DNA from: Halothermothrix sp.
GTDB taxonomy: Bacteria > Bacillota > Halanaerobiia > DY22613
Assembly: GCA_016841825.1 (NCBI GenBank)
Contig: JAENYK010000013.1
Location: forward strand, 6,739 to 70,738
Direction: 5' to 3'
Length of the DNA: 64,000 nucleotides
Made by a program: the position numbers and the translations under genes. Shown here piece after piece: positions 14,407-33,262 of the stretch (position 1 is the stretch's first letter; the number at the start of each line of letters is the position of its first letter). Under the pieces are notes generated by a model, which saw only the letters and a list, made by a program, of their open reading frames with translations, did no database searches and was not told where the DNA came from.

Positions 14407-14424
14407 GAAATTAAATCGCTAACA

Positions 14425-14991
14425 ATGGAGGAGATGAACTCTATGAACCAGGATAGGTGGACTGCAGTCAAAGACAATGACTCCACAGCAGACGGTACAT
14501 TTTACTATGGTGTCAAAACTACCGCAATATTTTGTCTACCATCTTGCAAATCTAAATTACCCTTAAAAAAGAATGTTCTCTTCTTCGATTCTTATGAACA
14601 GGCTATCCATAGTGGTTTTCGGCCCTGTAAAAGATGTCGGCCAGATTTATATCCCGATAATACCCCTAATCAACAACTTCTGACCAGAATCAAAGATTTT
14701 TTAGATGAAAACTATACTCTCCCCCAATGCGTTAATGGATTGACAGAACGTTTTGGAATAAGTAGTTCCCATCTTGTACGAATTTTTAAGAATAAATTTG
14801 GCTTAACTCCAAATGAACTTGTTCGAACTAATAGGGTTAAATTAGCAGAACGACTGCTTTTGTCTTCGCAACTCAAAACTATTGATATTGCTTTACGTTG
14901 TGGTTTTTCAAGCTACACAACTTTCTTTACTAATTTCAAAAAAACAACTGGAATGACGCCAGGGAAATATCGAAAAGGAGGCAATTTATGA
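14425..14991 (+). CDS. Ada-type Zn-binding domain / AraC-family HTH transcriptional regulator
   Basis: N-terminal FYYGVKTTAIFCLPSCKSK...FRPCKRCRP (Ada Cys4 Zn site). C-terminal AraC-type double HTH (GISSSHLVRIFK..., CGFSSYTTFFTNFKK). The true start may be an internal ATG at 14434 or 14443, after GGAGGAG. Confidence 0.8.
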   Translation: MEEMNSMNQDRWTAVKDNDSTADGTFYYGVKTTAIFCLPSCKSKLPLKKNVLFFDSYEQAIHSGFRPCKRCRPDLYPDNTPNQQLLTRIKDFLDENYTLPQCVNGLTERFGISSSHLVRIFKNKFGLTPNELVRTNRVKLAERLLLSSQLKTIDIALRCGFSSYTTFFTNFKKTTGMTPGKYRKGGNL

Positions 14992-15641
14992 AAAAACTAT
15001 TTGCGCCGGGATGTGCCTTAACTATCTATAAGCCATATCTTGCAGAAAAGTTACACCAATTACTAGATGCCAGGCTGGGGAACATCGAAAGGCTCGATAT
15101 CTGTTGTAGAAATCACCCTTTATTGGAAGACGGTACTGAGGTAATTAATATCTGTCCAGGCTGTGATCGACGATATCGGGAGAATTACACTAACTCCTCT
15201 ACCGTTTCTCTCTGGGAAGTTCTCGCAGCTAATGATTTTCTCCCACTTCCCGATTATCAGGGGCAAAAGATGTCCATTATTGATGCCTGTCCAACCCGTA
15301 GTCAAGTAAGGGTTCATAAGGCTATCAGAATATTACTTGACAAAATGAACATCGAGTTGATGGAACCAGAAAAAACAGGTACAAAAAGCTCTTGCTGTGG
15401 TGATAGTTTTTGGAGTGTACTACCCACTGAACAGGTCAAAGAAAAAATGATTGAACGGGCAGCAGAAATGCCAGTAGATGATGTAGTAGTTTACTGCGTA
15501 TCCTGCAGTAAATCTCTATTCATTGGTGGGAAAAAACCTCATTACATGATTGACCTTTTATTTGGAGAAGAGACCATTCCTAAAACCTATGAACCTGACG
15601 AATGGCACCGGGAGGTTGATGAATTTATTGCTGCCCACTAA
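14988..15641 (+). CDS. Cysteine-rich CCG-domain protein (HdrB/GlpC/LutA-like Fe-S protein)
   Basis: Two Cys-rich halves: PGC...DICC...CPGC and DACP...SCCGD...YCVSC (CCG...CxxC signature). ATGA overlap with the regulator stop. Confidence 0.55.
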   Translation: MKKLFAPGCALTIYKPYLAEKLHQLLDARLGNIERLDICCRNHPLLEDGTEVINICPGCDRRYRENYTNSSTVSLWEVLAANDFLPLPDYQGQKMSIIDACPTRSQVRVHKAIRILLDKMNIELMEPEKTGTKSSCCGDSFWSVLPTEQVKEKMIERAAEMPVDDVVVYCVSCSKSLFIGGKKPHYMIDLLFGEETIPKTYEPDEWHREVDEFIAAH

Positions 15642-15665
15642 CTCACCTACTACTATAATTTTAAA

Positions 15666-15702
15666 AGTCGTAATTAGGACTATTGCCCTCCTAATTACGA
15701 CT
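15666..15702. terminator. Bidirectional terminator hairpin between convergent genes
   Basis: 13-bp perfect stem AGTCGTAATTAGG/CCTAATTACGACT, between the end of the CCG gene (+) and the end of the big operon (-). Confidence 0.55.
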
Positions 15703-15740
15703 TCTTAAGTCTACCAAACAAAACAGCAGAGTTTCCTCTA

Positions 15741-17204
15741 CTATTCAGATAATTCTGAGTTACCAATTCGATTTTTTAACATTAACCCCAGAACCAGGCG
15801 TTGAATCTTCTCTCTTTCAAAAATCAGTTTGTTAAAAGCATAGTCTAGAACCGTCCGATTTCTGGCACAACGATTTGTTTTATTTAACTTAATCCGATAA
15901 TCCCCTTCTTGACCATAATGTAAGACTGGACAGATACCACAGAAAGGCTTATAAGCGCATGAATCACAATAATACCCTTCCAAAATGGATCTCTTAATCA
16001 GATTTTTTGATTGCTCTCTCCGGATCAAATCGAGATAATTATCCCTAAATACATTTCCCACGATAAAATCTTCCATAACTCTAGCTTCATCACAACAATA
16101 AATGTCACCATTGTAGTTATAAACAATCTGTCCACGAATCATTCCACAGGGACTTCCCAAATCCAGAAAACCTGTGTCTGTTCCATGAAGTATATTCTTT
16201 AAGATTAAATGAAGATATCGATCCACAATGACTGTGCCTTCGTCTAACAATTCGAACATGTAGTTTACAGATTTTGTCCAGAATTCTACAAATTCTTCCA
16301 TAGTATAACCTATTTCATCCCAGACATCTACTGCATATCCCAAATAATCCAATGGTTTAACCTGTAAAGTTCGTTGACCCCATTTTACATATTCATCAAC
16401 AATCTCTTTCCAATATGGCAATGAGTATCTGGTAGTAACCATCAATAAGCCTACATGAATTCCTCTTTCATTACATCGTCTGACCCATTTGGTAACCTGA
16501 TCATAAGTTCCGGAATTACTATGGACATACAGACGATTTTTATCATGTACCTCTTTTGGACCATCTAATGAACTGGTTAGCATAAATTTATCTTTTCTGG
16601 CGGCTAAATAATCCAGAAATTCTTCATCCATCGCCAATAAATTTGTTACCAAAGCAAGTTTATATTCTTTGTTGTACTGCTGACTTAACTTTTCTGCATA
16701 CTCAAAGGTCAACTTGACCATTGGTTTATTTAATAGTGGCTCCCCACCTTGAAACTCAATCAATATCTTCTTCTTTGGTGATTGAAAGATAAACTCTAAT
16801 GTACGCAGCAAAGTCCGTTCATCCATGTCATATTGATTACCTTCTGTAATTGCAGCCGCTTCTGAATGGCAGTAAACACAGCGTAAATTACACCGTATTG
16901 TTGGAACAATAATGTGCAGAGCTGCACCAGTTTGAATATGTTTATATCTTTTATAATATCCTTCAATAATCTGTTCATAATTATCAACTGTGATGATAAT
17001 TCCCCGATTAATCAGATCTGGATACAGTTGTGAATCTATCTTTCCTGCCAAAAAATTATCATATGCCTCCACACTCAACGAAACCCAGGTTCCGTGATCG
17101 GTTGTCAATAAAACTTTGTCTTTTATCCTTTTTGGACGATAGAAATTTACTATATGACCGCCATTTTCCTCTAATTTTTTTTGAATATAATCCATCTCCA
17201 TCAT
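15741..17204 (-). CDS. Radical SAM/SPASM peptide maturase, paralog of 23093..24541 (HxsB-like)
   Basis: VPTIRCNLRCVYCHS. SPASM tail GSPCGMIRGQIVYNYNGDIYCCDE...CDSCAYKPFCGICPV. About two-thirds identical by eye to the 482-aa paralog. Confidence 0.85.
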   Translation of the reverse strand: MMEMDYIQKKLEENGGHIVNFYRPKRIKDKVLLTTDHGTWVSLSVEAYDNFLAGKIDSQLYPDLINRGIIITVDNYEQIIEGYYKRYKHIQTGAALHIIVPTIRCNLRCVYCHSEAAAITEGNQYDMDERTLLRTLEFIFQSPKKKILIEFQGGEPLLNKPMVKLTFEYAEKLSQQYNKEYKLALVTNLLAMDEEFLDYLAARKDKFMLTSSLDGPKEVHDKNRLYVHSNSGTYDQVTKWVRRCNERGIHVGLLMVTTRYSLPYWKEIVDEYVKWGQRTLQVKPLDYLGYAVDVWDEIGYTMEEFVEFWTKSVNYMFELLDEGTVIVDRYLHLILKNILHGTDTGFLDLGSPCGMIRGQIVYNYNGDIYCCDEARVMEDFIVGNVFRDNYLDLIRREQSKNLIKRSILEGYYCDSCAYKPFCGICPVLHYGQEGDYRIKLNKTNRCARNRTVLDYAFNKLIFEREKIQRLVLGLMLKNRIGNSELSE

Positions 17205-17221
17205 CTGTTATTCCCCCAAAA

Positions 17222-18130
17222 TTATTCATTTGTTAAACGCATACATGGATTTTCCCAAGTTATAACACTCTCTTCACACTCACTCATCGACTTTCGAAAA
17301 TCTGCTAACTGTCTATTATCCTGGATAATCTGCTTAAAATTATTGTTCAAAAGATTTCCCAGCGTGAACTTATCCTGATCAAAATATGGGCAAGGTAACA
17401 GCGTGCCGTCACATCTAACAACAAAAGTCTCCTTACCGGCATTACATTTTAGGTTCCCAACCTGACCATTTTCGATAAATTCACGAAAAGAATGTAACCA
17501 ATAAAAACTACAATCATACACGAAACGGATATACTTTTTATAATGATCAATAACCTTAAACAATTGGTAATAGTCAACAAAATCTAAAGCTTCCTGTCTG
17601 TACCATTTTAGATTTTTACTCATTTTGGGTGGTATAAGATATATGAGAGTGAAACCATTCTGGGCAAGAAAAAGAAATGAGTCAATCATATCCTGCAAAA
17701 AAGTTTTTCCCGTGATAATGTTAACACCTATCTTGATCTGCAGATTATTCTCCTTAGCATAGGTACAAAGGTCACTATATCTCTGAACTTCGTTGATGCA
17801 GATAGTAGAGCCCAAACTGATATAAACTTCATTCAAACCAGAATTATTTAACTCAACTAATCGCTCTTTATCTAATAAAATTCCGTTAGTTGCCAACTGA
17901 GTCTTAAAACCCTTAAGATGAGCCTGCTGAATTATCTGGTTCAAATCATCTCGTAAAAGTGGCTCACCTCCTGAAAGTTTTAAATACCGGAAATCATTAT
18001 CTTGTAAATCAAGCAGAATCTGATCAATCTCTGCAACGCTCATCAATCTTCGAGGTTTATCATGCTCATAACAGAAAGTACAGTTGGAATTACATTCCTG
18101 ATTTACCTTCAGATTAACACCTTTACCCAT
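17222..18130 (-). CDS. Radical SAM enzyme with short SPASM/twitch-type C-terminal Cys cluster
   Basis: VNQECNSNCTFCYE (CX3CX2C), GGEPLL, and C-terminal CNAGKETFVVRCDGTLLPCPYF. Confidence 0.8.
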   Translation of the reverse strand: MGKGVNLKVNQECNSNCTFCYEHDKPRRLMSVAEIDQILLDLQDNDFRYLKLSGGEPLLRDDLNQIIQQAHLKGFKTQLATNGILLDKERLVELNNSGLNEVYISLGSTICINEVQRYSDLCTYAKENNLQIKIGVNIITGKTFLQDMIDSFLFLAQNGFTLIYLIPPKMSKNLKWYRQEALDFVDYYQLFKVIDHYKKYIRFVYDCSFYWLHSFREFIENGQVGNLKCNAGKETFVVRCDGTLLPCPYFDQDKFTLGNLLNNNFKQIIQDNRQLADFRKSMSECEESVITWENPCMRLTNE

Positions 18131-19365
18131 TAAACCTCACTCTTTTCATCTTTTTTTATGATAATTGTCTTGGGATTTATCAAATAATTATTTGCAATTT
18201 TTTGTAATTCAGCATCAGTTATTTCTGCATACTGATCCAAAACCGTTTCAAAAGGAATTATCTGATTAGTCAAAAGTTCTTCAATACCAAAAACACTGGC
18301 CAGAGATAATGTTGTCTCAAATTTTCGATATAAACTGCCTGCGTATTGTGTTTTGACAAATTCCAGTTCTTCGCTGGAGATTAATTCACTCCTCAATCTG
18401 ATTAACTCATGATTAATTACATCTTCTACCTGATCAATCATCTCAGGAGAAGATTTAGTATAGATCAGAAAAATACCTGTATCTTCATATGGTAAATGTT
18501 TAGCTTCAACAGAATATACCAATCTCTCATCTTCCCGAAGACGCTTATATAAACGTGAGTAAAAACCTTCACCTAACAGTTGAGCAAATGTTTTAAAATA
18601 TGGTTGAAGCGAGCTCTTCAGTCCAGTAACGGGAAATGCTATAAACAGATGGGCTAAAGATAGATTGCGAGAAATAATAATTTTTTCCCGCTTTACCTCT
18701 TCTTGCGACAGATTTTCTACTTTTAAATCTTCCGACTTCTTCTGAAAGTGACTAAAATAGTTATCCAAAAATCCAGTAAACTCTTCTTCTAAAATATCAC
18801 CACAACAGGAGATTACTATATTTTTATAGTTAAAATACTTGTTATAGTGTTCAATCAAGTGTTCAGGACAAAACTGATTAACCGTTTGGACATACCCACG
18901 AATTGGATTCCGCAATGGATGTTCATTCCAATAATATAACGAAAAAAGATCCCACATCGCTCCCGGTGAATTCTGATGTGTCAAAATCTCCTGTAAGATG
19001 ATTGTTTTTTCCGATTCCAAAAGATCTGCAGCAAGGTTGAATTGAAAGATAGTCTCTAAAACCAATGGCAGTACTGTATAGAGATACTCTTTTCGGATCA
19101 CAAAATAAGTAGCCAGATAATCGCGAGTTGTAACAGCATTGAACACCCCACCATATTTTTCTACTGCATAGAAAACTTGTTGGTTTACCTGTCGATTTTC
19201 AAATAACATATGCTCTAAGACATGGGTTATCCCAAATCTGTCTCCATCATTTTGACTACCTACTTTAATGAATATTTTTACAGCACACAATCCAGTATTC
19301 TCTTTATGTGTACAGATCGTCCTGATACCATTAGATAGATTATTTTTCTTAATCATCATTCTCAT
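18130..19365 (-). CDS. M16-family zinc peptidase (catalytic HxxEH present, no signal peptide)
   Basis: GITHVLEHMLFEN inverzincin motif. 1-nt and 4-nt overlaps with neighbouring genes. Confidence 0.8.
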   Translation of the reverse strand: MRMMIKKNNLSNGIRTICTHKENTGLCAVKIFIKVGSQNDGDRFGITHVLEHMLFENRQVNQQVFYAVEKYGGVFNAVTTRDYLATYFVIRKEYLYTVLPLVLETIFQFNLAADLLESEKTIILQEILTHQNSPGAMWDLFSLYYWNEHPLRNPIRGYVQTVNQFCPEHLIEHYNKYFNYKNIVISCCGDILEEEFTGFLDNYFSHFQKKSEDLKVENLSQEEVKREKIIISRNLSLAHLFIAFPVTGLKSSLQPYFKTFAQLLGEGFYSRLYKRLREDERLVYSVEAKHLPYEDTGIFLIYTKSSPEMIDQVEDVINHELIRLRSELISSEELEFVKTQYAGSLYRKFETTLSLASVFGIEELLTNQIIPFETVLDQYAEITDAELQKIANNYLINPKTIIIKKDEKSEV

Positions 19366-20687
19366 TTTTCGAACTCCTTAGACATAGTTTGAATTTCTAT
19401 CTTTTCCTTATCTGAATAGCTGCCGACATAAGTAATAACCAGATTTGCTAATAGTTTTCTAGCAATTCTCTGATATAGCCCAACTTCCTGCATTTCTGGA
19501 CCATCCAGAAAAGTTAGTAGGCCTTCAGGAGAAAAACCTAAGAGCAAACCTTCACCAACGTAATCTGCATATCTTTCTTTATCCTCCAAAGAAAGATAAA
19601 AATTAGTTAAAAATCTTCTAACTACCTGCTCAAAATCATGATCATAGATATCCGAATTCAAAAGGTCGATCATCTCCTGCAAAATAGTCTTACCCACCAG
19701 ATATCCCTGATCACTAACAACCTTAATCTCCAGGGTGTTTAACTCACCAACTTCTATCTGTACATTAACCGTATAAGCTAGCCCCAGCTCTCGACGTAAT
19801 ACTTCATATAAACGTCGTGCTAAATATTCCTGAATGATATGTAGTCCAACCAGTTCTACTGTAGATTTAGCCTGATAGTTACTATAGGCTGCAACAAAAC
19901 TCTGATCAGAATCTATAAACTCAACGCTCTGATCAATTGTTGGAATAGCAATCTGCAGTTTCTCAAACTTATCTCTCTGGTCAACTTTAATTCCCGCTAA
20001 AGCTGCTTCAACTTCGGATTTCTCAAAATTACCAAAGATGACGATTGTTAATTTCCCGGTAAGGATCAGTTGTTGATAATATTCCTGAAGAGTTGGAAAA
20101 TCTATCTGCATAATTGATACAGGTGTACCTGCTGCCGGACTACTTAATGGATGAGATCTATAATAATTTTGACGAATTCTGTGCAGTATCTTCTCTTCTT
20201 CACCTATGCTTGATAGTTTAGTATATACCTGTTTCTGCTCTTCCAGGAACTCTGATTCTGTCAACTTATTAGCAAAGATGATTTCTTTTAAAAGTTGTCC
20301 TACTAACTGCAAATCTTCCTTATAAAATTTAATACAAAGTGCCCCATAAGTATAGTTTGCCAGATTGTTAAATTGAATTATATGTCTGTTTTTTAAGTCG
20401 CCAATCTCTGTATTGGTATACTTTTGGGTATCTCCCTTTAACAATGTCCGCATTAATAAATAATCTACACCCCCGGGATACTTTTGCTGATCTTTTGAGA
20501 TTTCATAATAGAGATTCATCACCGCAAAATTTTCAAATGAATCCTGTATCTGAATCACTTTAATCCCATCTACCTGATATTCTAAAAAACCATCGTTCGG
20601 TTCTGCTGCAAACCCATTGAGGGATAACGTTATTAATAAAAAAATAGTAATAGCTAAATTACGAATTTCCCTTTTCATAGTAATCAT
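19362..20687 (-). CDS. M16-family peptidase-like protein lacking HxxEH (non-catalytic partner), secreted
   Basis: N-terminal signal peptide (LLITLSLNGFAAEP). M16-like length and layout, but GGVDYLLMRTLLKG sits where HxxEH would be. Confidence 0.6.
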   Translation of the reverse strand: MITMKREIRNLAITIFLLITLSLNGFAAEPNDGFLEYQVDGIKVIQIQDSFENFAVMNLYYEISKDQQKYPGGVDYLLMRTLLKGDTQKYTNTEIGDLKNRHIIQFNNLANYTYGALCIKFYKEDLQLVGQLLKEIIFANKLTESEFLEEQKQVYTKLSSIGEEEKILHRIRQNYYRSHPLSSPAAGTPVSIMQIDFPTLQEYYQQLILTGKLTIVIFGNFEKSEVEAALAGIKVDQRDKFEKLQIAIPTIDQSVEFIDSDQSFVAAYSNYQAKSTVELVGLHIIQEYLARRLYEVLRRELGLAYTVNVQIEVGELNTLEIKVVSDQGYLVGKTILQEMIDLLNSDIYDHDFEQVVRRFLTNFYLSLEDKERYADYVGEGLLLGFSPEGLLTFLDGPEMQEVGLYQRIARKLLANLVITYVGSYSDKEKIEIQTMSKEFEK

Positions 20688-20701
20688 TCTCTCCCCCCTT
20701 T

Positions 20702-22054
20702 TTACTCATTTTTTGCTGCCTGATTTACAACTGCACCTGTCACACATGGTTCTTTAATAAGATATTTGTTGCCAAACCTAATCAAATCTCTCTTTGTAAT
20801 TCCTTTTACTTTATCAATATAATAGATAGCATAGTCCAGATCACTGGCAGTCCAAATATTTGCATATAACTTTGCCTGTTCACTTAATCTCTCCTGTGCA
20901 ATAATCCACTGATAATTAAGAATTTCTTTACTTTGATTAATTATTTTTTTTGAAATTAGATAATAAAATAGTTTTCTACGCATTATTTTTGTTAAATCTT
21001 TTCGTGCTTTTTCAATATCACTCTGTTTTACTACTGCCTGCAGAACAAAAGGAGCCTTATACCGTTTGGAAGCATAATAGATATAAAAATCTCTAACATA
21101 ACCTAAATTCTGAATCTGCTTTGCGAAATATGAATCAGGATTGTTCATTACCGCACATAATAAATCTGCAATATGTGAGTCATCGCTCTCTTCATCCAGT
21201 CCTGGCCCCTCCCAGACCATATACAAAGATGTATATGGTCCACGTTTTTCATCAAAATAATAGATTTCTTGATCTGAACTCAATGAACTCTCATTAAAAA
21301 CTGGTTCCTGAATAGGTTCGCCTCTATCCCAATCACTGAAATACTTTTCAATATCCTGTTTCCAATCTATCCCCCGAATATCTCCTGCAACAGCAATTAA
21401 CGATCGTTCTGGTCTAAAATATTGGTCATGAATGGTTCGTAAATCATCAACTGTTATTGTTCCCAAAGTTGAAGCATCCCCTAATACATCAAAGCTCTGA
21501 GTCTCTTCTGTCCACAATTCCGCCCGGATTAAATCCCACAATCTCTCGTCTATATTGGTCAATCGCTCTGCAGCCTCAGCTAAGACTATCTGCCTTTCTT
21601 TAATTAAAGTTTCTTCACGCAAGGGAGGATTTCGCATCATTTTACTCAAAATCTTCAATCCCTCACTCCAATAATCTTTTGTAAAAGATAGATGGACGAT
21701 AACATGGTCTTGAGATGTCATAGCATTTGCAACTGCTCCTATTTGATTGAGGTCTTCTTCTACATCAATAAATAGCAGATGTTCAATCAGATGAAAAATC
21801 CCCCGATTATTATCTGACTGATAAATTGCTCCGACTTTAAAGGCACCTACTAATGTTATCAGGGGAAGGTCATTATTATTTAAAGCAATAACTTCTAATC
21901 CGTTTGCAAGATCTGTCCTCTCATATTTCGCTGTAAAAGAAGTGAAAGATGTAAAAGTATCTGTGCTATTTGAGAAACATCCTCCCAGGACAGATATCAG
22001 AATCAGAAACGCAAGGGATGTAATGATTATCCTACCTTTATGCCCTACAATCAT
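20702..22054 (-). CDS. M16-family zinc peptidase, predicted lipoprotein
   Basis: FHLIEHLLF (HxxEH). N-terminal hydrophobic segment ending in the lipobox-like VLGGCFS. Confidence 0.75.
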   Translation of the reverse strand: MIVGHKGRIIITSLAFLILISVLGGCFSNSTDTFTSFTSFTAKYERTDLANGLEVIALNNNDLPLITLVGAFKVGAIYQSDNNRGIFHLIEHLLFIDVEEDLNQIGAVANAMTSQDHVIVHLSFTKDYWSEGLKILSKMMRNPPLREETLIKERQIVLAEAAERLTNIDERLWDLIRAELWTEETQSFDVLGDASTLGTITVDDLRTIHDQYFRPERSLIAVAGDIRGIDWKQDIEKYFSDWDRGEPIQEPVFNESSLSSDQEIYYFDEKRGPYTSLYMVWEGPGLDEESDDSHIADLLCAVMNNPDSYFAKQIQNLGYVRDFYIYYASKRYKAPFVLQAVVKQSDIEKARKDLTKIMRRKLFYYLISKKIINQSKEILNYQWIIAQERLSEQAKLYANIWTASDLDYAIYYIDKVKGITKRDLIRFGNKYLIKEPCVTGAVVNQAAKNE

Positions 22055-23078
22055 CTAAATTCTCCCCTTCAGCCTTTTTTTGTGGTTCAAACTTATGTAA
22101 TTTCTCCATTTTACTTAATACCTTTGTAAACCTACCGAGATCAGTAACCGCCGTGAACTCATTTTCACCGTAATAAAAAATATATTCTTTCCAGACACCT
22201 TCACACAGTTGATTAAAGAAACAATTCTCACAAACTTTTGCTTTATCTTTAATCTCCAAACGACGTTTTTGCCAATCAATGGTCGCTGATTGAATAGGAC
22301 TACCATAGATTTTTTTCTTTTTGTTCCAGAAAAGGTCCGAGTATTCAGTGAACTCCTCATAATCTTCAAGAAAACAGAAAGGAACACATTCTAACTGTAA
22401 AGGTAGGTGCTCTGACTTGGCATATTCCAGAACTTCCAGGATAAATGGTTGAATCTCAGAATATTTTGGAACATAATCAGCAAACCGTGGATCTCCGATT
22501 GATGAATGGGGGAAAGCAATATTTACATATTTGGCCTGCAAACGATGAAATAGTTTTACTGTGTCCAACAGGAAAGAATAATTTTCTTTCGAAATAACTA
22601 CCTTACCCATAATGTTTCCACAACAGTCTGCAATATTACGTAAACCTTGTACTGTTTCTGCAAAACTACCTTTTCTTCTTGTCACCCTATCGTGAATGTC
22701 TGCATTCGAACCATGCAGGGCAATACCAAAGGCAATGGGATAATTTTCAACTAATCTCTTTGTCAGATGAAAATCTGCCAAAACCCGGCCATTGGTTTGC
22801 ATATCAATATAGGTAAACCCTTTTTCCATTACACTATCACACAATTGAAACAGATCTTTTCTAATAGTCACTTCTCCACCAGTCAACACCACCTTTGAAT
22901 AACTTTCTCCCTGAGATATTCTCTGGCAATAGGCTTTTTTTAGTTCTTCTTCACATTCTTCAAAAGTACGGTCACAGGTTTTACCCACTTTGATAATCTC
23001 ATCCCGATTTAGCGCTATAATACAATGAATACAGTCATTATTACAGGAATATCCCACTTTTAAATCAAATACATACAT
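22038..23078 (-). CDS. Radical SAM enzyme (HxsC-like position and size)
   Basis: KVGYSCNNDCIHC (CX3CX2C), LTGGEVT. C-terminal Cys tail CVPFC...CENCFFNQLCEG. Lies immediately downstream of the HxsB-like gene. Confidence 0.8.
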   Translation of the reverse strand: MYVFDLKVGYSCNNDCIHCIIALNRDEIIKVGKTCDRTFEECEEELKKAYCQRISQGESYSKVVLTGGEVTIRKDLFQLCDSVMEKGFTYIDMQTNGRVLADFHLTKRLVENYPIAFGIALHGSNADIHDRVTRRKGSFAETVQGLRNIADCCGNIMGKVVISKENYSFLLDTVKLFHRLQAKYVNIAFPHSSIGDPRFADYVPKYSEIQPFILEVLEYAKSEHLPLQLECVPFCFLEDYEEFTEYSDLFWNKKKKIYGSPIQSATIDWQKRRLEIKDKAKVCENCFFNQLCEGVWKEYIFYYGENEFTAVTDLGRFTKVLSKMEKLHKFEPQKKAEGENLDDCRA

Positions 23079-23092
23079 GGTATCACCTCACT

Positions 23093-24541
23093 TTACTGTT
23101 CATCAAATTTTAACTTTAACATCATTCCCACAATCAATTGTTGAATTTTTTTCCGCTCATAGATCAATTTTTCAAACACTACATCCATTACTGCCCGATT
23201 TAACTGACAGCGATTTGTTTTATTGAGCTTTAAAGCAAAGTTTCCTTCCTGTCCATAATGCAGAACCGGACAGACACCACAATACGGTTTATAAACACAG
23301 CTATCACAATAATAACCTTCCAAAATTGAAGACTGAATCAATTCCCTGGACTGCCTTTTTTGAATAATCTCCTGATACCGATTTTCAAAAACACTACCAA
23401 TTACCAGACCATCCACGACCCTGGCTTCATCACAACAATAGATATCACCATTATAGTTATATACGATCTGACCTCTAATCATCCCACAGGGACTAGACCA
23501 GTCCATATATCCTGTATCTACGTCGTACAGAATATTTTTTAGAGCCAGACGAACATGTCTTTCATGAAGGATCACACCTTTTCCCAATAACGCAAAAATA
23601 TAATCAACACTTCTCCGCCAGAATTCAATAAATTCCTCCATTGTATAGCCAATCTCATCCCAGACCTCTACTGCATAACCTAAATAATCCAATGGCTTAA
23701 TCTGAATCTCTTTTTGTTCCCACTTTACATATTCGTCAATAATCTCTTTCCAATATGGTAAAGAATATTTTGTTGTAACCATCAATAATCCAACCCATAA
23801 CCCCCTGGCTTTACATCTTTCTATCCAATGAGTTACCTGGGCATAGCTGCCATTTCCAGAATGAACATATTGACGATTCCTATCATGGACATAAGCTGGT
23901 CCGTCTAAAGATGTTGTAAGTTTAATTTGATCTTTATGGTCACACAGAAAATCTAAAAATTCTTCATCCATTGTAGTAAAATTACTCACCAGGGCAAAAC
24001 GATAACGTTTATTATATTTTTTATTCAACTCTGCAGCATATTCGATGGCCAATTTGACCAATGGTTTATTAAGTAAGGGTTCTCCACCCTGAAATTCAAT
24101 GGTAAATTCCTCTCTTGGTGAATCAAAAATAAATTCAAGAGTGTATTTTAATGTCTCCTCTGACATATCATACTCAGAACCTTCCGTAATTGCTTCCGCT
24201 TCAGAATGGCAATACAGACAGCGTAAATTGCAGCGAATAGTCGGTACAAGAATATGTAAACTGGCTCCTGTTTCAAAATTTTGATATCTTCGATAATACT
24301 TTTGCACAATCTCTTCAAAATTATCTTCTGTTATAATAAATCCTCTATGTAGAAGGTCTGCATACAACTTATCATTCAAATTATCATTGAGAAAGTTGAA
24401 ATAATCAGCATCTGTTAAGTTCACCCAGGACCCATGGTCTGTAGTTAGTAGATACGAATCTTTAAGCTTTTTCTGTCGATAAAAATTTTTTATATATTCC
24501 TGATTAGTTAGTTGATTGCCAATCCAGTCAGGTAACACCAT
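23093..24541 (-). CDS. Radical SAM/SPASM peptide maturase (HxsB-like)
   Basis: VPTIRCNLRCLYCHS. SPASM tail SSPCGMIRGQIVYNYNGDIYCCDE...CDSCVYKPYCGVCPV. Start abuts the stop of the 125-aa upstream gene. Confidence 0.85.
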   Translation of the reverse strand: MVLPDWIGNQLTNQEYIKNFYRQKKLKDSYLLTTDHGSWVNLTDADYFNFLNDNLNDKLYADLLHRGFIITEDNFEEIVQKYYRRYQNFETGASLHILVPTIRCNLRCLYCHSEAEAITEGSEYDMSEETLKYTLEFIFDSPREEFTIEFQGGEPLLNKPLVKLAIEYAAELNKKYNKRYRFALVSNFTTMDEEFLDFLCDHKDQIKLTTSLDGPAYVHDRNRQYVHSGNGSYAQVTHWIERCKARGLWVGLLMVTTKYSLPYWKEIIDEYVKWEQKEIQIKPLDYLGYAVEVWDEIGYTMEEFIEFWRRSVDYIFALLGKGVILHERHVRLALKNILYDVDTGYMDWSSPCGMIRGQIVYNYNGDIYCCDEARVVDGLVIGSVFENRYQEIIQKRQSRELIQSSILEGYYCDSCVYKPYCGVCPVLHYGQEGNFALKLNKTNRCQLNRAVMDVVFEKLIYERKKIQQLIVGMMLKLKFDEQ

Positions 24542-24919
24542 CTAACTCACCTCTTTATTATCGGCAGATGGAGATCGGCTATCACCTGTTTTCTCTTGTG
24601 CACAGAGCAAAACCCGTTCTAAGATTATTTCCCGCAATCGTCCTTTTGTCTCCATCATTTGGGAGTAAAAACTATAGTTAATCACTTCTTCATTAAATTC
24701 GTAAACTATTTTCTCGAGATCTCCACTATTAACACTAATTTCAACAAGAATATCATCTGGTCGAGAATCATCGCAGACGAGTACTGCATTGCATTTGCCA
24801 ATCATATAGTGAGCAACGGCGATAATGATCTCTGGTTGATAGATCTCTTTATGAAAGGTTAAAATAGCAGTAGACTCTGATACCTTTTTAAAATTCCCTA
24901 ATTGATTAATTTTTTCCAT
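24542..24919 (-). CDS. Small accessory protein, possibly HxsD-like
   Basis: 125 aa, translationally abutted to the rSAM gene. FNEEVINYSFYSQMMETKGRLREIILERVL loosely resembles the LLNDYxLRE signature I recall for HxsD. Confidence 0.4.
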   Translation of the reverse strand: MEKINQLGNFKKVSESTAILTFHKEIYQPEIIIAVAHYMIGKCNAVLVCDDSRPDDILVEISVNSGDLEKIVYEFNEEVINYSFYSQMMETKGRLREIILERVLLCAQEKTGDSRSPSADNKEVS

Positions 24920-24932
24920 TTTTTACCCTCCT

Positions 24933-26180
24933 TTATGCAGTTTCTTTCTGTACTTTAAAAATATTGGAAGCCTTGTTATATATGAAGACTACAATTGCTT
25001 TAAATAAACCATAAATTCGCTGAACAATAAAGATTGACAAAGGAATGAAGAGGACTATTCCTAAAGCCGACTGAAAAGTAATTTTCTCAAGATCCAATGA
25101 GATAATTAAATAAAATATCTCTTGACTGCGTTGAATGATCATTCGACCAAAAAAGTAAGTGATATAAGTAGTGGACATAATCGCATAGATCAATAATTTA
25201 ACCTCCTGGGCTGTTATCTTTTCACGATTTTTAATCTTCTTTGGCAGTCGTTTTTTTAAAAAATTAGCTGATTGTGCCTTCAAATTAGGAACATTCATCA
25301 AATCCATCAACAGATAATAACCATCCCATTTTAATAATGGATTCAAATTTAGAATGATTCGGATATATGCCAGGACAGTTACCTGATAGAATAGAGGCGA
25401 ATAGATCGTTTGCGGTAATAAATAATAAATAACCATAGATAATCCTCCAATAATTACATCAACAAGTGGGCCAGCAGCGCTTGTTATAATCCGTGCTTTC
25501 CTGTCAGACATCCAAATATCGCTAGTATTAACATAAAAAACTGGGATAAACATATAGAACATAAATCCTGCATCTTTTACATTGCGTCCATATCGTAAAC
25601 AAGCCAGGGCATGACCTAATTCATGCAAAAACACTGGGAAGAAAGCTGCACAGTACAACAAAAACATGTTGAAGAAATTTTTCTTAAGCAACAATGGTTT
25701 TGCGGGAGTTAACGTATATAATATCCACCCCAGAACAGATACAACAAAATAAAAAATTATAGCCTGTTTGGAAAATACAAGATTTCCAATCTGTTTATAA
25801 ACCCACTTGAATAGACGGTCAATATTTCTAATCGGTATCCTGATCTGATATAACTTTTGCTTGTACTTTAATGTCTTTGGATCATACTCATAATTCCCCA
25901 GAAAGCCCCGGTCACCCAAATCTTTGATTAGTTTTTCAATATGATCTACTGAAATCCGATTATACTCATAGTAAAACTTCAGGTTAATCTCTTCGATAGA
26001 ATGTTGCCCATCTAATAGTTCCCAGATAAAATAATCATGGGGACTTAGCAGCATATAAACATCATCATTTTTATTCTTTAAAATATATTGTGTGTTATTG
26101 TCTTTAGAACTGAATGAATTTTTAATTTCGACATTTTCGATTCGTTTTGGTTCATTCGGTATTACTATATCTGTACTCAC
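24933..26180 (-). CDS. PqqD/RRE-like domain fused to a membrane M50 (site-2-protease family) metalloprotease
   Basis: N-terminal LSPHDYFIWELLDGQHSIEEINLKFYYEY...IEKLIKDLGDRGFL (PqqD-like). Then TM helices with FLHELGHAL (HExxH) and LNLNPLLKWDGYY (NxxPxxxxDG). Confidence 0.75.
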   Translation of the reverse strand: MSTDIVIPNEPKRIENVEIKNSFSSKDNNTQYILKNKNDDVYMLLSPHDYFIWELLDGQHSIEEINLKFYYEYNRISVDHIEKLIKDLGDRGFLGNYEYDPKTLKYKQKLYQIRIPIRNIDRLFKWVYKQIGNLVFSKQAIIFYFVVSVLGWILYTLTPAKPLLLKKNFFNMFLLYCAAFFPVFLHELGHALACLRYGRNVKDAGFMFYMFIPVFYVNTSDIWMSDRKARIITSAAGPLVDVIIGGLSMVIYYLLPQTIYSPLFYQVTVLAYIRIILNLNPLLKWDGYYLLMDLMNVPNLKAQSANFLKKRLPKKIKNREKITAQEVKLLIYAIMSTTYITYFFGRMIIQRSQEIFYLIISLDLEKITFQSALGIVLFIPLSIFIVQRIYGLFKAIVVFIYNKASNIFKVQKETA

Positions 26181-26193
26181 TGGTTAACACCTC

Positions 26194-27042
26194 CTATTTA
26201 TAAATTATGGTTCGTAAATACTCTCCAGTAACAACTTTATCTCCAATTTTGATTATCCTAGGAGAGATTATCTCGACCTCTTTAAATTCCATTAAATCTT
26301 TATATAATTCGTTTTTTTGAATATATTTAATAGTTGAAAATTTGATTCTTTTTCCATATGGGGATACACTTTCAGTAAAATCATTAGCATAGTAAATCTC
26401 TGTCTCCCCCAAATGAATAGCAAAGCAGGTCAGTTGATTCCTAAATTGATTAGCAATCTGAGGATATTTTTCTTGTAAAAGAGTATAAACCTGTTCTCCC
26501 ATTTTTAACGAATCAGCACACTCAACAGAACAGGGGAAATGTTGAATTAACGCATATCTAAAATAGCGAATCAGTGTATTGACATAAAAGGAAGCTGGAT
26601 CAGAAGATTCAATTGTCAAAGCTGTAAAATCAATCTTATTCATTCTTACCTGATTCACATTACAATCATAAGCATCAAGACAACACTCTGGATATCCCAG
26701 TAATTTTCCAAAATCCCGATCAGATATATTATCCAGATCCGATTTTAGCAGAGTAGGATCTTTTGCCAAATAAATATAATGATATCCTTGTGCCGATTCC
26801 TGAAAAGTCCAGTCTTTTTTACTACTAAATCCTATTCGTCCATCTTTATCAATTATTTTATATGCAGATATATAATAAGATAATGAATTTTGTTGACAAA
26901 AATTTTTATATAACTCCAACTGGTCAACATAGGCATTCAATCTTATCAATGGTTTTAAGCCTTCACAAAGACAAAGCAACTGCAAACTACTGAGATAGTC
27001 TCGACAGACAAAATTTAAATCTATACCATTATATATCATCAA
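26194..27042 (-). CDS. Conserved-looking hypothetical protein with GYPECC...HFPCSVEC Cys motif
   Basis: 282-aa ORF tightly packed in the operon. I recognise no family with confidence. Confidence 0.5.
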   Translation of the reverse strand: MMIYNGIDLNFVCRDYLSSLQLLCLCEGLKPLIRLNAYVDQLELYKNFCQQNSLSYYISAYKIIDKDGRIGFSSKKDWTFQESAQGYHYIYLAKDPTLLKSDLDNISDRDFGKLLGYPECCLDAYDCNVNQVRMNKIDFTALTIESSDPASFYVNTLIRYFRYALIQHFPCSVECADSLKMGEQVYTLLQEKYPQIANQFRNQLTCFAIHLGETEIYYANDFTESVSPYGKRIKFSTIKYIQKNELYKDLMEFKEVEIISPRIIKIGDKVVTGEYLRTIIYK

Positions 27043-27051: not shown

Positions 27052-28572
27052 CTAAAAAAAACTAGTTTCCATTAACATACTAACTTTTTCAAAATTGTAC
27101 ACATTACTGAGAGAAAGGGAAGGATAATTTGTGGTAATTAGACCACGAATACTCTCCATCTTTTTTTCAGCTAATGGTAAGAGTTCTTTGATCTGATTTC
27201 TCAGTCTATCGGTATTATTTTCAATTTGATCTTTACTCAGATTTTTCCCATAATGAGATATATATGTTTTTAAGTTTCCCGACAAAATCTCATCTGCATT
27301 AAAATCCGAATATACAGCATAATCCTCAAAACTGGATAATAAGACCTGTATTTCAAAATCATCTTGATTCTCATAGCAATCTGTATACGGAAAAATTACT
27401 GTCGGAGTAACCCATCTGGGCTTGCCTCCTGCTTCAACAGTTTTTCGAATGACTTCTTCAGTTACTGCTATATCTTCTTCTGTCTCCATCGGAAAACCAG
27501 ACATCCACCATGTATCTGCCACTATTCCACATTCATATGCATCTCTAATTGATTTGAGCATCTGTTCAACAGTATACGGACGTTTGTGAGCTTTCAACAA
27601 TTTTGGTGAACCTGTTTCACATCCAAAATCTACAAAAGAGTAATTAGCTTTAACCATCTCCTGTAAAAGATCACGACTAAATATCGGAGCAGCATTATCT
27701 CTAATCAATTCAAACTGGTTACCAAGTCCAGATTTATTTATCTTCTGTGCTATCTCCAGCAGATGTTCTTCCGCATTACTGGCTGCCCAGGCTTCATCTT
27801 GAAAATAAATATGATTAGCCCCATGTTCTTTTAATAATCTGATCTGATCGATGACCCAATCAGTATCCATTAGTTTAAACTCGCTTCGACCGTGAAATCT
27901 ATCCAATTTACATCCCAGACAATAAGTACAGTTAAAAGGGCATCTACCGCGAACACGATTCACAGCAATTGGAATAGAAGAAGCCATTCTTGTTTTCAAC
28001 AAACCTGGATCGTAAATTGGAATTTTGTTTACATCATCAATCAGTTCTGGCAGCCCTCCATCGTGATATTTTGTGACAACTCCCGGAATTTTGATGTCAT
28101 AAAGAGAACTTCCATTATCGATTGCCAACAATAGTTTTTCTAAGGGAATCTCCGCTTCTCCCCTGATGACTACGTCTATTTCTGGATAGTGAACGATCTG
28201 ATCGGCAAAAATGGAAGCATTTGTCCCTCCAACAATTACTGGTTTGTCAGGATAGGTTGCTTTGAGCAATTTAGCAAATCTCAATGTACTTTTACTTTCT
28301 AACATCCAGTTAAGTTGTAAACAATATACATCATAATTCAGTAATATATCATTCAAAATTTGTCTAAAATTATTTTCAATCAAAGCAGATGTTAAGGAAA
28401 ATATAGCTGTCTCATACTTGTTGGATATATATGTAGCCAGATGTAACATTCCATATCCAATAGTTCCACCATCCCGTACCATTGTAGCCCGGGGATGGTT
28501 TATTAACCAATCAACATATTCTAATCCCTTGTGAAACCCTCTGGGCACCTGAATAAAAGCTACGTTTTGCAT
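27052..28572 (-). CDS. B12-binding-domain radical SAM enzyme (class B)
   Basis: N-terminal Rossmann-like cobalamin-domain pattern (PVIVGGTNASIF...DVVIRGEAEIPLEKLL), then RGRCPFNCTYCLG (CX3CX2C). Confidence 0.8.
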   Translation of the reverse strand: MQNVAFIQVPRGFHKGLEYVDWLINHPRATMVRDGGTIGYGMLHLATYISNKYETAIFSLTSALIENNFRQILNDILLNYDVYCLQLNWMLESKSTLRFAKLLKATYPDKPVIVGGTNASIFADQIVHYPEIDVVIRGEAEIPLEKLLLAIDNGSSLYDIKIPGVVTKYHDGGLPELIDDVNKIPIYDPGLLKTRMASSIPIAVNRVRGRCPFNCTYCLGCKLDRFHGRSEFKLMDTDWVIDQIRLLKEHGANHIYFQDEAWAASNAEEHLLEIAQKINKSGLGNQFELIRDNAAPIFSRDLLQEMVKANYSFVDFGCETGSPKLLKAHKRPYTVEQMLKSIRDAYECGIVADTWWMSGFPMETEEDIAVTEEVIRKTVEAGGKPRWVTPTVIFPYTDCYENQDDFEIQVLLSSFEDYAVYSDFNADEILSGNLKTYISHYGKNLSKDQIENNTDRLRNQIKELLPLAEKKMESIRGLITTNYPSLSLSNVYNFEKVSMLMETSFF

Positions 28573-28573: not shown

Positions 28574-30037
28574 TCATTCTCCTCCTTTCTGAGTCAAGTA
28601 ATTTTCATAAATTGCCAGATATCGTCTATCATAAAAGAACTTACTATAGATTCCATAATCCATAGCATCTTTGTAATCAAAATATAAATATTTAGAATCA
28701 ACCTTTATTTTATCCAGGTATTCCAGGCAGGTTATCTCAAAAATAAACTCCTCGAGTAAATCAATACCAAAGAATTGTTGAAACTTCTCTAAATCGACCT
28801 GCTTATTGCGATATAACATCTCAAGAATATAAATCTGCATGGTCTCCTTTACCGTTTCCTGTTTCCCTTTAAAGATTGCATCAATGCAGTTAAACCTGGT
28901 TATATCAGGATCAGTTCGATAATTAACAACCATTTTAGGTGATGTTATATAAGAGACACTACTAGGTCCAAATCCCAAACATGAATTTCCTCCTGTTAGA
29001 TTAGGTCGTGTATTATAGTTAAATTTGTTAAAGGTGATCTCCTTAGAAACAAAAGATTGAAATTCTAAATTATCGTTATTACATAGATTATGATACCCAT
29101 ACTCCTCACTCATCAAATTCGCAGCTTTTAAAGTGGGGTAGATTAATGAATTATAATAGTTATCTAAAAATTTCTCATGATTTTCAATCGAGCCAAACTC
29201 CCCTCTTCCACGCCGATAGACATAAACTGTTATTGAATAAGGACGGAGTTTAATCAATTGTTGAAAACTTTCCATAAAACTTTCTTTAGTTTGTCCATCC
29301 AGACCTAACATTAAGTCAACATTAATTTGATCAAATTTTAGCTTTTTAGCCAATTGAATAATCTCCAGCATTTTTTCGGGAGCTACATAGTCCCGTTTGA
29401 CTTTCTTTAAAACCTCCTGATCAAATGCCTGAACTCCGAAACTGACCCGATTAAATCCATAATCTTTAACCAATCTTAATTTTTCTAGATCGAAAATTCT
29501 CGGAGAATTCTCAAATGTTTTTTGAGAATTTTTTTTAAACTTAAACCATTTGAGAAATTCACTAAAAAGGTATTCCATCTGCTCTACAGTCAGTATATTC
29601 GGAGTACCACCACCCACGTATAGTGAATTATAGTCTATATCTCCTAATACTTCAGACATATCTGCCATCATTGGAATCAAAATCTCCAAATACCCATCTA
29701 TTTCAGAGGAATCAGCTAAAACGTGTGAGCGATACATACAATAAGTACATCTTTCTGGTCCAACACAAAAGGGAATACCGATATAGACATCAATCTTTTC
29801 CTTAATTTTAGGAATTGTTATTGCTTTTCGCCACCATTCTTTTACCTGTGAGAAATCAACACATTGATTATCTATGCTTCCGGTAAATCTCCATGGTGGA
29901 GTGATTAAGTTAAAACTTTCGGTAATTTTTTTATACGATGCAATCAACTGATCCAATTTCCCTGTTTCAATAACCTTTTCTGTCAAAGCAATTTTGTAAA
30001 GCGAATTATAGTCCAAGCAGTTTTCACCATGACTCAT
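28574..30037 (-). CDS. HemN-like (coproporphyrinogen III oxidase family, class C-type) radical SAM enzyme with a CX5CX2C motif
   Basis: VYIGIPFCVGPERCTYCMY, YVGGGTPN, and HemN-like length with a C-terminal helical domain. Confidence 0.7.
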   Translation of the reverse strand: MSHGENCLDYNSLYKIALTEKVIETGKLDQLIASYKKITESFNLITPPWRFTGSIDNQCVDFSQVKEWWRKAITIPKIKEKIDVYIGIPFCVGPERCTYCMYRSHVLADSSEIDGYLEILIPMMADMSEVLGDIDYNSLYVGGGTPNILTVEQMEYLFSEFLKWFKFKKNSQKTFENSPRIFDLEKLRLVKDYGFNRVSFGVQAFDQEVLKKVKRDYVAPEKMLEIIQLAKKLKFDQINVDLMLGLDGQTKESFMESFQQLIKLRPYSITVYVYRRGRGEFGSIENHEKFLDNYYNSLIYPTLKAANLMSEEYGYHNLCNNDNLEFQSFVSKEITFNKFNYNTRPNLTGGNSCLGFGPSSVSYITSPKMVVNYRTDPDITRFNCIDAIFKGKQETVKETMQIYILEMLYRNKQVDLEKFQQFFGIDLLEEFIFEITCLEYLDKIKVDSKYLYFDYKDAMDYGIYSKFFYDRRYLAIYENYLTQKGGE

Positions 30038-31523: not shown

Positions 31524-31564
31524 CGTTAGCACACCTCTTTCTGCCCAACACAAGTAAACAGTAT

Positions 31565-33238: not shown

Positions 33239-33262
33239 CTCTACCATCCTTCATTTGATTAG

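Follow-up and report, generated by a model that had tools for sequence, protein, structure and literature searches.

The His-Xaa-Ser (Hxs) system was reportedly first defined by Haft and Basu in 2011. The original definition is cited in PMC9062424 and PMC13128918. HxsD-B-C-A has since been described as a broad antiphage system (Li et al., Nat Commun 2026; PMC13128918), in which HxsB, HxsC and HxsD are all needed for HxsA to be processed at its N terminus, HxsC binds HxsD, and a +8 Da (+C/-4H-type) change maps to the SHRSS segment of HxsA. The same study identified functionally important residues in HxsD (D61/R65 and Y23, with the motifs LYW and LLNDYxLRE), and found the gene order D-B-C-A in 99.6% of HXS systems and 99.7% of the systems in Pseudomonadota. 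Reconstitution of HxsB/C/D in vitro failed, partly because HxsA was insoluble, and the radical chemistry is stated there to be unresolved (PMC13128918). Here, we analyzed a 64,000-nucleotide stretch of Halothermothrix sp. (contig JAENYK010000013.1; hereafter the window), in which an initial annotation had proposed an Hxs module embedded in an operon. That annotation described Hxs as biochemically uncharacterised, which the 2026 report of an antiphage function and a modification at SHRSS has made outdated (PMC13128918). We find that the three minus-strand genes spanning 24919-22038 are probably a divergent homolog of the HxsD-HxsB-HxsC cassette that has been recruited into a leader-dependent pathway for a peptide made by the ribosome and modified after translation (RiPP), rather than a proteobacterial antiphage HXS system.

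The open reading frames (ORFs) of this module encode proteins of 125 aa (24542..24919), 482 aa (23093..24541) and 346 aa (22038..23078), all on the minus strand and separated by gaps of 0 and 14 nt, exactly as first annotated; the last runs 17 nt into the next gene, which encodes an M16 peptidase. The radical S-adenosylmethionine (SAM) assignments made earlier were also borne out, with CxxxCxxC present in both of the larger proteins and SPASM cysteines in the 482-aa protein. The module is part of a tight run of about 17 minus-strand genes extending from 33922 to 15741 (~18 kb; intergenic gaps of -17 to +60 nt), and window positions 14164..26204 were matched at 99.9% DNA identity by a contig of the metagenome-assembled genome (MAG) GCA_018434525.1. 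As canonical operons for comparison, we used those on plasmids of Aeromonas, Calothrix, Adhaeribacter, Leptospira, Methylobacter and Rhizobium, together with a Nanoarchaeota locus.

We compared the three proteins and the precursor peptides of the operon with the NCBIfam Hxs models. The 482-aa protein passed the HxsB model TIGR03978 (390.2 bits, cutoff 370, E 1.2e-116), aligning over profile positions 3-462 of 466. It carries the radical-SAM motif CNLRCLYC at residue 104 and SPASM cysteines at C352, C369/370, C412, C415, C421, C424 and C445, and Pfam assigned it Radical_SAM and SPASM domains. Its next best NCBIfam match was PapB (132.7 bits, cutoff 340), with further matches to SCIFF (100.2 bits, cutoff 425), DynA and anSME; scores against the triceptide models TIGR04261 (GrrM/OscB; 60.8 bits, cutoff 310) and NF041707 (YhhB; 65.4 bits, cutoff 445) were far below cutoff. 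The solved structures nearest to it by sequence are CteB and anSME. It is 28-35% identical to canonical plasmid-borne HxsB proteins and 61% identical to an ortholog in Ruminiclostridium herbifermentans that NCBI already names "HxsB"; a scan of reference genomes with the 482-aa protein returned distant loci only (26-36% identity) and no close relatives; two of these loci, from Actinomycetota, served as HxsA-like controls. By curated criteria, the 482-aa protein alone of the three-gene module is an Hxs member, along with a 487-aa paralog in the same operon.

The 125-aa protein had HxsD as its best NCBIfam match (TIGR03976; 29.2 bits, E 8.6e-7, cutoff 50), as did the D-like proteins of three relatives (25-33 bits); as controls, a canonical HxsD scored 78.8 bits and an archaeal member 53.9 bits. 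Precomputed Pfam annotation assigns PF27806:HxsD (E<=1e-5) to this exact protein and to most relatives; the Pfam library run here gave it no family, PF27806 evidently being newer than that library. When we aligned the D-like profile with an HxsD alignment including the archaeal member using hhalign, the match was strong (97.4%, E 9e-12), a result that depends on the archaeal sequence as a bridge, since without it E was 1.5e-3. In the alignment, canonical LL(N)D(Y/F)xLR(E/D) is represented in the window by EVINYSFYS and in the archaeon by ELLNYAVYK; the D-like protein and this archaeal HxsD have a variant motif, E(E)(V/L)(I/L)NYxΦY, in common. Neither LYW nor LLNDYxLRE occurs as such; the aligned window segments are AHYMIG and EVINYSFYS (D to N, R to Y), and the downstream IRxLLI helix of HxsD is kept as LREIIL. 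The initial annotation had likened the string FNEEVINYSFY...RLREII to LLNDYxLRE; the string is present and EVINYSFYS is indeed the counterpart of that motif, but RLREII aligns with the downstream xIRxLLI. A word-indexed homolog search returned 3 proteins, too few for a deep alignment. An AlphaFold2 model (mean predicted local distance difference test score, pLDDT, of 78.6) has a β-β-α-β-β arrangement followed by a long helix. A sequence search of the PDB with the D-like profile gave no significant match, and a Foldseek search with the model gave none at E<=0.001 (best E 0.013, to RNA-polymerase Rpb11/L-like subunits) and none of PqqD or RiPP recognition element type among the 50 matches listed. 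Judging from the model, the D-like protein is likely a small α/β partner protein, and we draw no functional inference beyond that.

For the 346-aa protein, the two best NCBIfam matches were HxsC4 (NF038332; 89.4 bits, cutoff 500, E 2.4e-25) and HxsC (TIGR03977; 67.6 bits, cutoff 267.9, E 7.9e-19), followed by WgkB (53.3 bits); a canonical HxsC scored 395.9 bits on TIGR03977 as a control. The radical-SAM motif, CNNDCIHC, begins at residue 12. Using hhalign, the C-like profile matched canonical HxsC with 98.9% probability (E 2.3e-17) over 251 columns that include the C-terminal signature PxC…DW(K/Q)…CxxCxxxxxC (C235, C283, C286 and C292 in the window), and as a control it matched the unrelated ~300-aa radical SAM/SPASM family of these clusters over the N-terminal core only (E 7.8e-10, 161 columns). 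Pairwise BLAST aligned the C-like protein with HxsC at 25% identity over 105 aa. In an AlphaFold2 model (pLDDT 93.9), its nearest structures are the peptide-modifying SPASM/twitch enzymes SuiB, SkfB, ChlB and anSME. Taken with the motifs in common and with a D-B-C order like the canonical one, these profile comparisons support divergent homology of the D-like protein with HxsD and of the C-like protein with HxsC.

The substrates encoded in this operon are of a different kind from HxsA. Precursor peptide 1 (96 aa, 33632..33922, minus strand; ...GEDEEMYHSSSHVNHTDDSHGDASW) and precursor peptide 2 (99 aa, 33308..33607, minus strand; ...GEDEEMGHSDLHTSHDNDHNSSW) each consist of a folded NHLP-clan leader and a short core, and both pass the Os1348-family leader model NF038399 (60.6 and 67.1 bits, respectively; cutoff 40), with scores of 41.4 and 41.6 bits against Pfam Frankia_peptide that are just under the cutoff of 48. 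Their cores, …GEDEEM-YHSSSHVNHTDDSHGDASW and …GEDEEM-GHSDLHTSHDNDHNSSW, contain 1 and 2 HxS triplets (HSS in the 96-aa precursor, HTS and HNS in the 99-aa precursor); both are acidic and rich in His, Ser, Asp and Asn, lack Cys and end in Trp, and the first has a net charge of -7. Neither precursor matched the HxsA model (TIGR03979) at E<=1, and we found no HxsA-like ORF or extra precursor in the 64-kb window, where no ORF exceeded 2 HxS per 25 aa. The triplets that the initial annotation had pointed out are present, but at chance level in the window, and the case for HxS as a feature of these substrates rests on relatives.

We counted HxS in 19 non-identical related cores from other loci, with the window excluded, against 5000 shuffles. 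HxS occurred 56 times versus 17.2±3.5 in shuffled cores (0/5000 shuffles), a significance that the shuffle P-values somewhat overstate, the cores not being phylogenetically independent. H..S (i,i+3) was depleted (6 versus 16.6 expected) and H-x-S-W enriched (11 versus 0.6 expected). We also tried a generalised H-x-[S/D/N] motif, which is 8/8 in the window cores, and rejected it because the excess in the family comes from Ser alone (H.[DN] 15 versus 13.3). All 19 related cores end in Trp, as do the core of a further locus (L028) and the two window cores (22/22). Across the family, cores are 17-50 residues long, rich in Ser (19%), His (12%), Asp (10%) and Asn (9%), mostly net negative, and almost free of Cys (1 in 610 residues). 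In an exhaustive search with the 96-aa precursor among 1.84 billion representatives, we recovered 68 leader relatives, of which only about 9-10 have His/Ser-rich cores, every one of them Trp-terminated. The expectation in the initial annotation of a very different, long-leader substrate is well supported by the leader matches and by the strong HxS enrichment of related cores.

Among the fetched loci (405 kb), every ORF with 4 or more HxS per 25 aa lay beside an HxsB homolog, and because of this the link between HxsB and HxS spans three substrate architectures: canonical, Actinomycetota and RiPP-type. The Actinomycetota representatives are HxsA-like proteins with 7 repeats. These are encoded in two MAGs (L003, 8919..9590; L004, 8592..9605), where the HxS repeats are consecutive (…HYSHVSHASHSSHVSHYSSSHSSHGSHFSHS…) and the genes lie just upstream of HxsB homologs 31-33% identical to that of the window; they are outliers, since the published census places 99.7% of HXS systems in Pseudomonadota.

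The module is not a chance arrangement, as the pair of D-like and HxsB genes recurs in seven other loci: L012 (the complete genome of R. herbifermentans, a cultured member of the Clostridia), L013, L015, L027, L028, L026 (partial) and a JGI contig. The core shared by these loci consists of one to five Os1348/Frankia-type precursors, an M50-like HExxH protease, the HxsD-like protein, HxsB, and one to three M16 peptidases. The C-like radical SAM gene directly follows HxsB in 5/7 related loci and lies elsewhere in L026; it was not seen on the JGI contig. The window has the order HxsD-HxsB-HxsC with B and C adjacent, and the canonical order is also found in L018. A ~300-aa radical SAM/SPASM gene is present in 5/7 related loci, and genes for B12-binding radical SAM enzymes, DUF5838/DUF483 proteins and MacB/ABC exporters vary across the family. 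The window, of Firmicutes-type lineage, holds the most elaborate version, with two B12-binding radical SAM enzymes, a HemN-like radical SAM enzyme, two GT2 proteins and a duplicated HxsB.

This second HxsB-family protein (487 aa, 15741..17204, minus strand; TIGR03978 387.8 bits, cutoff 370) is encoded by the last gene of the operon, outside the region considered in the initial annotation, and is 64% identical to the 482-aa protein. It directly follows the gene for a 302-aa radical SAM/SPASM enzyme, and the same pairing of HxsB with a short SPASM enzyme, without D or C, occurs in L016 beside HxS-containing precursors, which suggests that the two form a second functional pair in the operon. We placed 24 HxsB-family sequences in a neighbour-joining tree, with an unrelated 437-aa SPASM enzyme of the window as root. 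Both window paralogs grouped with L012, L013 and L015 in a RiPP-type clade (bootstrap 50/50) that adjoins a large DPANN-archaeal/Omnitrophota group, apart from the canonical plasmid-borne sequences. Several archaeal HxsB proteins (among P0019, P0025, P0027, P0052 and P0057) are fused to an APH-type kinase domain (PF01636); two of these are named Woesearchaeota by NCBI.

The proposal that this is an Hxs system was supported, with corrections. HxsB passes its cutoff, the best matches of D and C are Hxs families and not other defined radical SAM families, and the order is D-B-C; as the D-like and C-like proteins score below the curated cutoffs and there is no HxsA, it is nevertheless not a canonical Hxs system. 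Several observations weigh against a recruited Hxs cassette. The 125-aa protein reaches 29.2 bits where HxsD requires 50, it matches strictly canonical HxsD only weakly with hhalign (16% probability, E 1.5e-3), though in the same register, pairwise BLAST with canonical HxsD gave no alignment, and the window has N and Y at the D and R positions of LLNDYxLRE, the residues mutated in the 2026 study. The 346-aa protein is far below both HxsC cutoffs (67.6 versus 267.9 and 89.4 versus 500 bits) and lacks the ~100-residue N-terminal domain of canonical HxsC, so that its radical-SAM cysteines are at positions 12-19 and not at 105/108; distant homologs of it (35-38% identity) also occur in unrelated clusters of several radical SAM genes without HxsB or HxsD. 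HxS counts in the window cores (1 and 2) are at composition-matched chance (P = 0.64 and 0.10), and the related cores that carry the enrichment share ancestry. Finally, L016 has HxsB (49% identity), a short SPASM enzyme and HxS precursors but no D or C, and one further relative lacks C next to B; for this reason D and C may not be obligatory in this cluster type.

We weighed three other explanations. Were this canonical HXS antiphage defence, in which the effector HxsA, matured by HxsD/B/C and exported, stops phage DNA from entering, an HxsB above its curated cutoff and the same D-B-C order would be expected, and both are found. However, no ORF of the window contains HxsA or tandem HxS repeats, the precursors bear NHLP leaders and lack both a signal peptide and a peptidoglycan-binding domain, neither D nor C reaches its cutoff, and the window HxsB belongs to a clade apart from the canonical sequences. 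The proposed electrostatic binding of DNA cannot apply, since the window cores are acidic (-7) and the canonical repeat block is basic (+4). The module also sits among proteases and tailoring enzymes in a biosynthetic operon of 17 genes rather than on a mobile 4-gene island, and the related locus of R. herbifermentans belongs to the Clostridia, whereas 99.7% of HXS systems are in Pseudomonadota. Taken together, we consider antiphage HXS highly improbable here. PADLOC (2023 library, predating HXS) returned generic viperin-level radical SAM similarity only, which is uninformative. It is also rather improbable, in our view, that the enzymes are generic radical SAM/SPASM RiPP maturases of sactipeptide, ranthipeptide or triceptide type whose likeness to Hxs is at the level of the superfamily. 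Such a reading would accommodate the matches of the 482-aa protein to PapB (132.7 bits), DynA, SCIFF and anSME, with CteB and anSME as its nearest structures, the resemblance of the C-like fold to SuiB, SkfB and ChlB, and the fit of H-x-S to the Ω1-X2-X3 motif form of the His-acting triceptide synthases HtkB and HaaB (PMC11499958). Against this, HxsB scores 390 bits and passes an equivalog cutoff where no other family exceeds 133, the triceptide models reach only 60.8 (cutoff 310) and 65.4 (cutoff 445), and only Hxs has a D-like partner and the D-B-C order. Thioether chemistry of the sactipeptide or ranthipeptide kind is excluded because the cores are essentially free of Cys (1 in 610 residues), and HxS-rich substrates lie beside HxsB homologs in most fetched loci, whether canonical, Actinomycetota or RiPP-type. 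A triceptide-like crosslink is plausible as a description of how the cassette works, not of the family to which it belongs.

A third explanation, which we think unlikely, accepts that the cassette derives from Hxs and attributes the HxS enrichment to the function of the product, such as metal chelation by His/Ser/Asp, and not to recognition by the enzymes; in that case the conserved target would lie at the invariant C-terminal Trp or somewhere else, or else D-B-C would carry out a single step such as leader processing. The terminal Trp (22/22) is more conserved than any single HxS, the window cores contain few HxS, canonical B, C and D are all required for N-terminal cleavage of HxsA, and several other radical SAM enzymes of the operon could modify the core. 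Yet HxS-dense substrates accompany HxsB across three unrelated architectures, and product function alone would hardly account for this; the spacing keeps strictly to i,i+2, i,i+3 being depleted, and the canonical +8 Da modification maps to an HxS repeat.

The remaining genes of the operon, all on the minus strand, encode tailoring enzymes and peptidases. A 298-aa GT2 glycosyltransferase (34079..34975; Pfam Glycos_transf_2 105.9 bits) lies 156 nt upstream of the first precursor and possibly belongs to the cluster; it is not conserved in related loci. Following the precursors is a 560-aa protein with an N-terminal GT2 domain (31565..33247; Glycos_transf_2 61.1 bits) and weak SunS-like similarity (TIGR04195 42.3 bits, below the cutoff of 350), for which L012 has a 591-aa GT2 counterpart. 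In L013 (4714..5242), 65- and 59-aa ORFs upstream of the precursors resemble fragments of this 560-aa protein (…NNNGYHYEGLIYEYL… versus …NNTGFHYEGIIHEYIV…), and this resemblance suggests a decayed glycosyltransferase gene. Next come a 492-aa B12-binding radical SAM enzyme and putative methyltransferase (30090..31568; TIGR04190 199.8 bits, cutoff 500; Pfam B12-binding and Radical_SAM), a 487-aa HemN/HemZ-like radical SAM enzyme (28574..30037; NF006067 146.9 and TIGR03994 140.2 bits, both below cutoff), and a second, 506-aa B12-binding radical SAM enzyme (27052..28572; TIGR04190 100.3 bits; Pfam B12-binding and Radical_SAM). Genes for B12-binding radical SAM enzymes are also found in L013, L015, L027 and the JGI contig; the HemN/HemZ-like gene is specific to the window among the loci of this family. 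A 282-aa DUF483/DUF5838-type protein (26194..27042; Pfam DUF483 28.9 bits, cutoff 25) has counterparts annotated as DUF5838 or DUF483 in L012, L015, L027 and L028.

Directly upstream of the HxsD-like gene is a 415-aa M50-like HExxH intramembrane metalloprotease (24933..26180; Pfam Peptidase_M50 32.5 bits, HELGH at residue 186). Its best match was the daptide HExxH protease model NF041824 (127.8 bits, below the cutoff of 300), and an N-terminal segment (residues 34-95) resembles PqqD/ScmD (TIGR04248 ScmD, E 5.8e-7), making it a candidate leader-binding protease. The M50-like gene also lies directly upstream of the HxsD-like gene in L012, L013, L027 and the JGI contig; in L015 and L028 it is upstream as well, with a DUF364 gene in between. 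Downstream of the module are three M16-type proteins with weak similarity to PqqF, below cutoff: a 450-aa M16 peptidase (20702..22054; Pfam Peptidase_M16 and M16_C; HLIEH, with HxxEH at residue 88), a 441-aa M16-like protein without HxxEH (19362..20687; weak Pfam M16 and M16_C) that is probably a non-catalytic partner, and a 411-aa M16 peptidase (18130..19365; M16_C 121.2 and M16 63.9 bits; HVLEH, with HxxEH at residue 48). The short 302-aa radical SAM/SPASM enzyme (17222..18130; Pfam Radical_SAM and SPASM) has counterparts of 292-307 aa in L012, L013, L015, L016, L027 and L028. A terminator-like hairpin with an 11-bp stem was found by a consensus scan at the end of the operon (15721..15746, minus strand); as terminator-like sites occur in the region at chance frequency (11 found versus 8.7 expected), it is only suggestive of an operon terminator. 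A promoter scan of the region was likewise at chance level (85 found versus 85.6 expected) and carries no weight. No exporter gene is evident beside the window operon, unlike in most relatives, which have MacB/ABC genes.

The operon is flanked (35425..38814 and 1782..3719) by respiratory and redox genes unrelated to the cluster, namely a 681-aa molybdopterin-type oxidoreductase, a 190-aa 4Fe-4S ferredoxin-type subunit, a 260-aa membrane protein and a 645-aa CcmF-type cytochrome c biogenesis protein. A separate RiPP-like cluster lies at 10797..14066 on the minus strand, with the 437-aa radical SAM/SPASM enzyme (best match Clo7bot, TIGR04334, at 252 bits, below the cutoff of 600), a 362-aa radical SAM/SPASM enzyme (11356..12444) and four paralogous peptides of ~30 aa, MLDxLWNLExYS…P(I/A)KxYC(C/T/A)P (12592..12744, 12462..12554, 11071..11181 and 10797..10907). 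Between this cluster and the Hxs-like operon lie an Ada/AraC regulator on the plus strand (14425..14991) and a CCG-domain protein. The distant homologs of the C-like protein are found in clusters of 3-4 radical SAM genes in Heliobacterium chlorum (L024, 8907..17075) and a member of the Clostridiaceae (L025, 1992..10966), together with a U32 peptidase, a thymidylate-kinase-like protein and a large ABC/UvrA-like ATPase, with adjoining Tn7-like or serine-recombinase genes; these clusters are perhaps a mobile system, so far undescribed, for defence or nucleotide modification.

If a divergent Hxs cassette does serve a RiPP pathway here, we infer the following course. The leader would dock the precursor on the maturases, and HxsB and the HxsC-like radical SAM enzyme, with the HxsD-like partner, would then act by radical chemistry on motifs of the His-x-Ser type. 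The analogy is with canonical HxsC-HxsD/HxsB, which are required for the +8 Da change on SHRSS of HxsA, and the sites would most likely include the C-terminal H-x-S-W region. Further tailoring could be added by the short radical SAM/SPASM enzyme, the two B12-binding radical SAM enzymes, the HemN-like enzyme and one or both glycosyltransferases, after which the M50-like HExxH protease and the M16 peptidases would take off the leader. The product would be exported, by MacB/ABC exporters in those relatives that carry them, genes that the window does not carry. A metal-binding or signalling role for the peptide is plausible because its core is acidic and His-rich.

An Hxs-like cassette in a leader-bearing RiPP operon is apparently a rare and undescribed arrangement; in the open-access literature, we found no description of an NHLP-linked Hxs cassette. 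It is quite possible, if short of probable, that these loci represent an undescribed RiPP class in which an ancient, portable HxsD-HxsB-HxsC cassette places the His/Ser modification of antiphage HxsA (+8 Da) on short, soluble, Trp-terminated leader peptides. If true, the cell would export an acidic poly-His peptide, perhaps serving as a metallophore or a signal, and one cassette would have three lifestyles: maturation of an antiphage effector in Proteobacteria, natural-product biosynthesis in Clostridia and an unassigned role in DPANN archaea. Peptides of ~100 aa with NHLP leaders are a standard, tractable format for RiPP enzymology (co-expression, tandem mass spectrometry and nuclear magnetic resonance). 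Since the substrates are tractable in this way and one member of the cluster family is in cultured R. herbifermentans, the family could make Hxs radical chemistry directly testable. The NCBI label "HxsB" covers at least three biologically different systems, and outside Proteobacteria it should not be read as antiphage HXS. The cores also define a rare precursor subclass that is His/Ser-rich, Cys-free and Trp-terminated.

Compared with the HXS antiphage system, the window shares an HxsB-family enzyme above cutoff, a small HxsD-type partner, a second radical SAM enzyme with the same C-terminal Cys motif and an identical D-B-C order, and its relatives share HxS-enriched substrates. It differs in having no HxsA, and hence no signal peptide, peptidoglycan-binding domain or contiguous basic HxS array (charge +4 for the canonical repeat block, net -7 for the window cores); its substrate is a peptide of ~96-99 aa with an NHLP leader, an acidic core and a C-terminal Trp. 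Its D and C are below cutoff, with N/Y for D/R in the former and the N-terminal ~100 aa missing from the latter, and the cassette is embedded among M50/M16 proteases, an extra radical SAM/SPASM enzyme, B12-binding and HemN-like radical SAM enzymes and glycosyltransferases. The lineage is Firmicutes-type and not Pseudomonadota, and the HxsB clade is separate. The cassette of DPANN archaea and Omnitrophota is closer by HxsB, forming the sister clade of the window HxsB in the neighbour-joining tree; its archaeal HxsD has the ELLNYxΦY variant and its C-like radical SAM enzyme is short (311 aa), with HxsC4 as best match (162.6 bits). The archaeal HxsD, in contrast, passes TIGR03976 (53.9 bits) and is accompanied by an extra HxsD_rel gene. 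In the Nanoarchaeota locus (L017, 7310..10345), HxsD, a 76-aa HxsD_rel protein (62.6 bits, cutoff 41), HxsB and the short C-like enzyme lie beside replication genes, and unlike in the window there is no NHLP precursor, M16 or M50 peptidase or HxS-dense ORF in the fetched stretch.

On the substrate side, the closest described precursors are Os1348/PosA of Pseudomonas sp. Os17 (PMC7726476, PMC12636437), which belong to the same leader family (NF038399) and, like the window precursors, lack a double-Gly cleavage site. The core of PosA is unrelated (…IGVAAIFDTQQQQARMD), however, and its modifying enzymes are of αKG-HExxH and MNIO type, not radical SAM enzymes. The triceptide synthases HtkB and HaaB (PMC11499958) are likewise radical SAM/SPASM enzymes acting on repeated three-residue motifs that start with an aromatic residue or His, and the analogy makes action of the cassette on H-x-S plausible. 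They belong to different enzyme families and have no HxsD or HxsC partners, and the only mass shift reported for Hxs is +8 Da, versus -2 Da for triceptide crosslinks. The set of enzymes predicted to remove the leader resembles both the daptide HExxH protease, through HELGH in the 415-aa protein, and PqqF-like M16 peptidases; unlike either, the combination of three M16 genes (one without HxxEH) with an M50-like protease is particular to the cluster family of the window.

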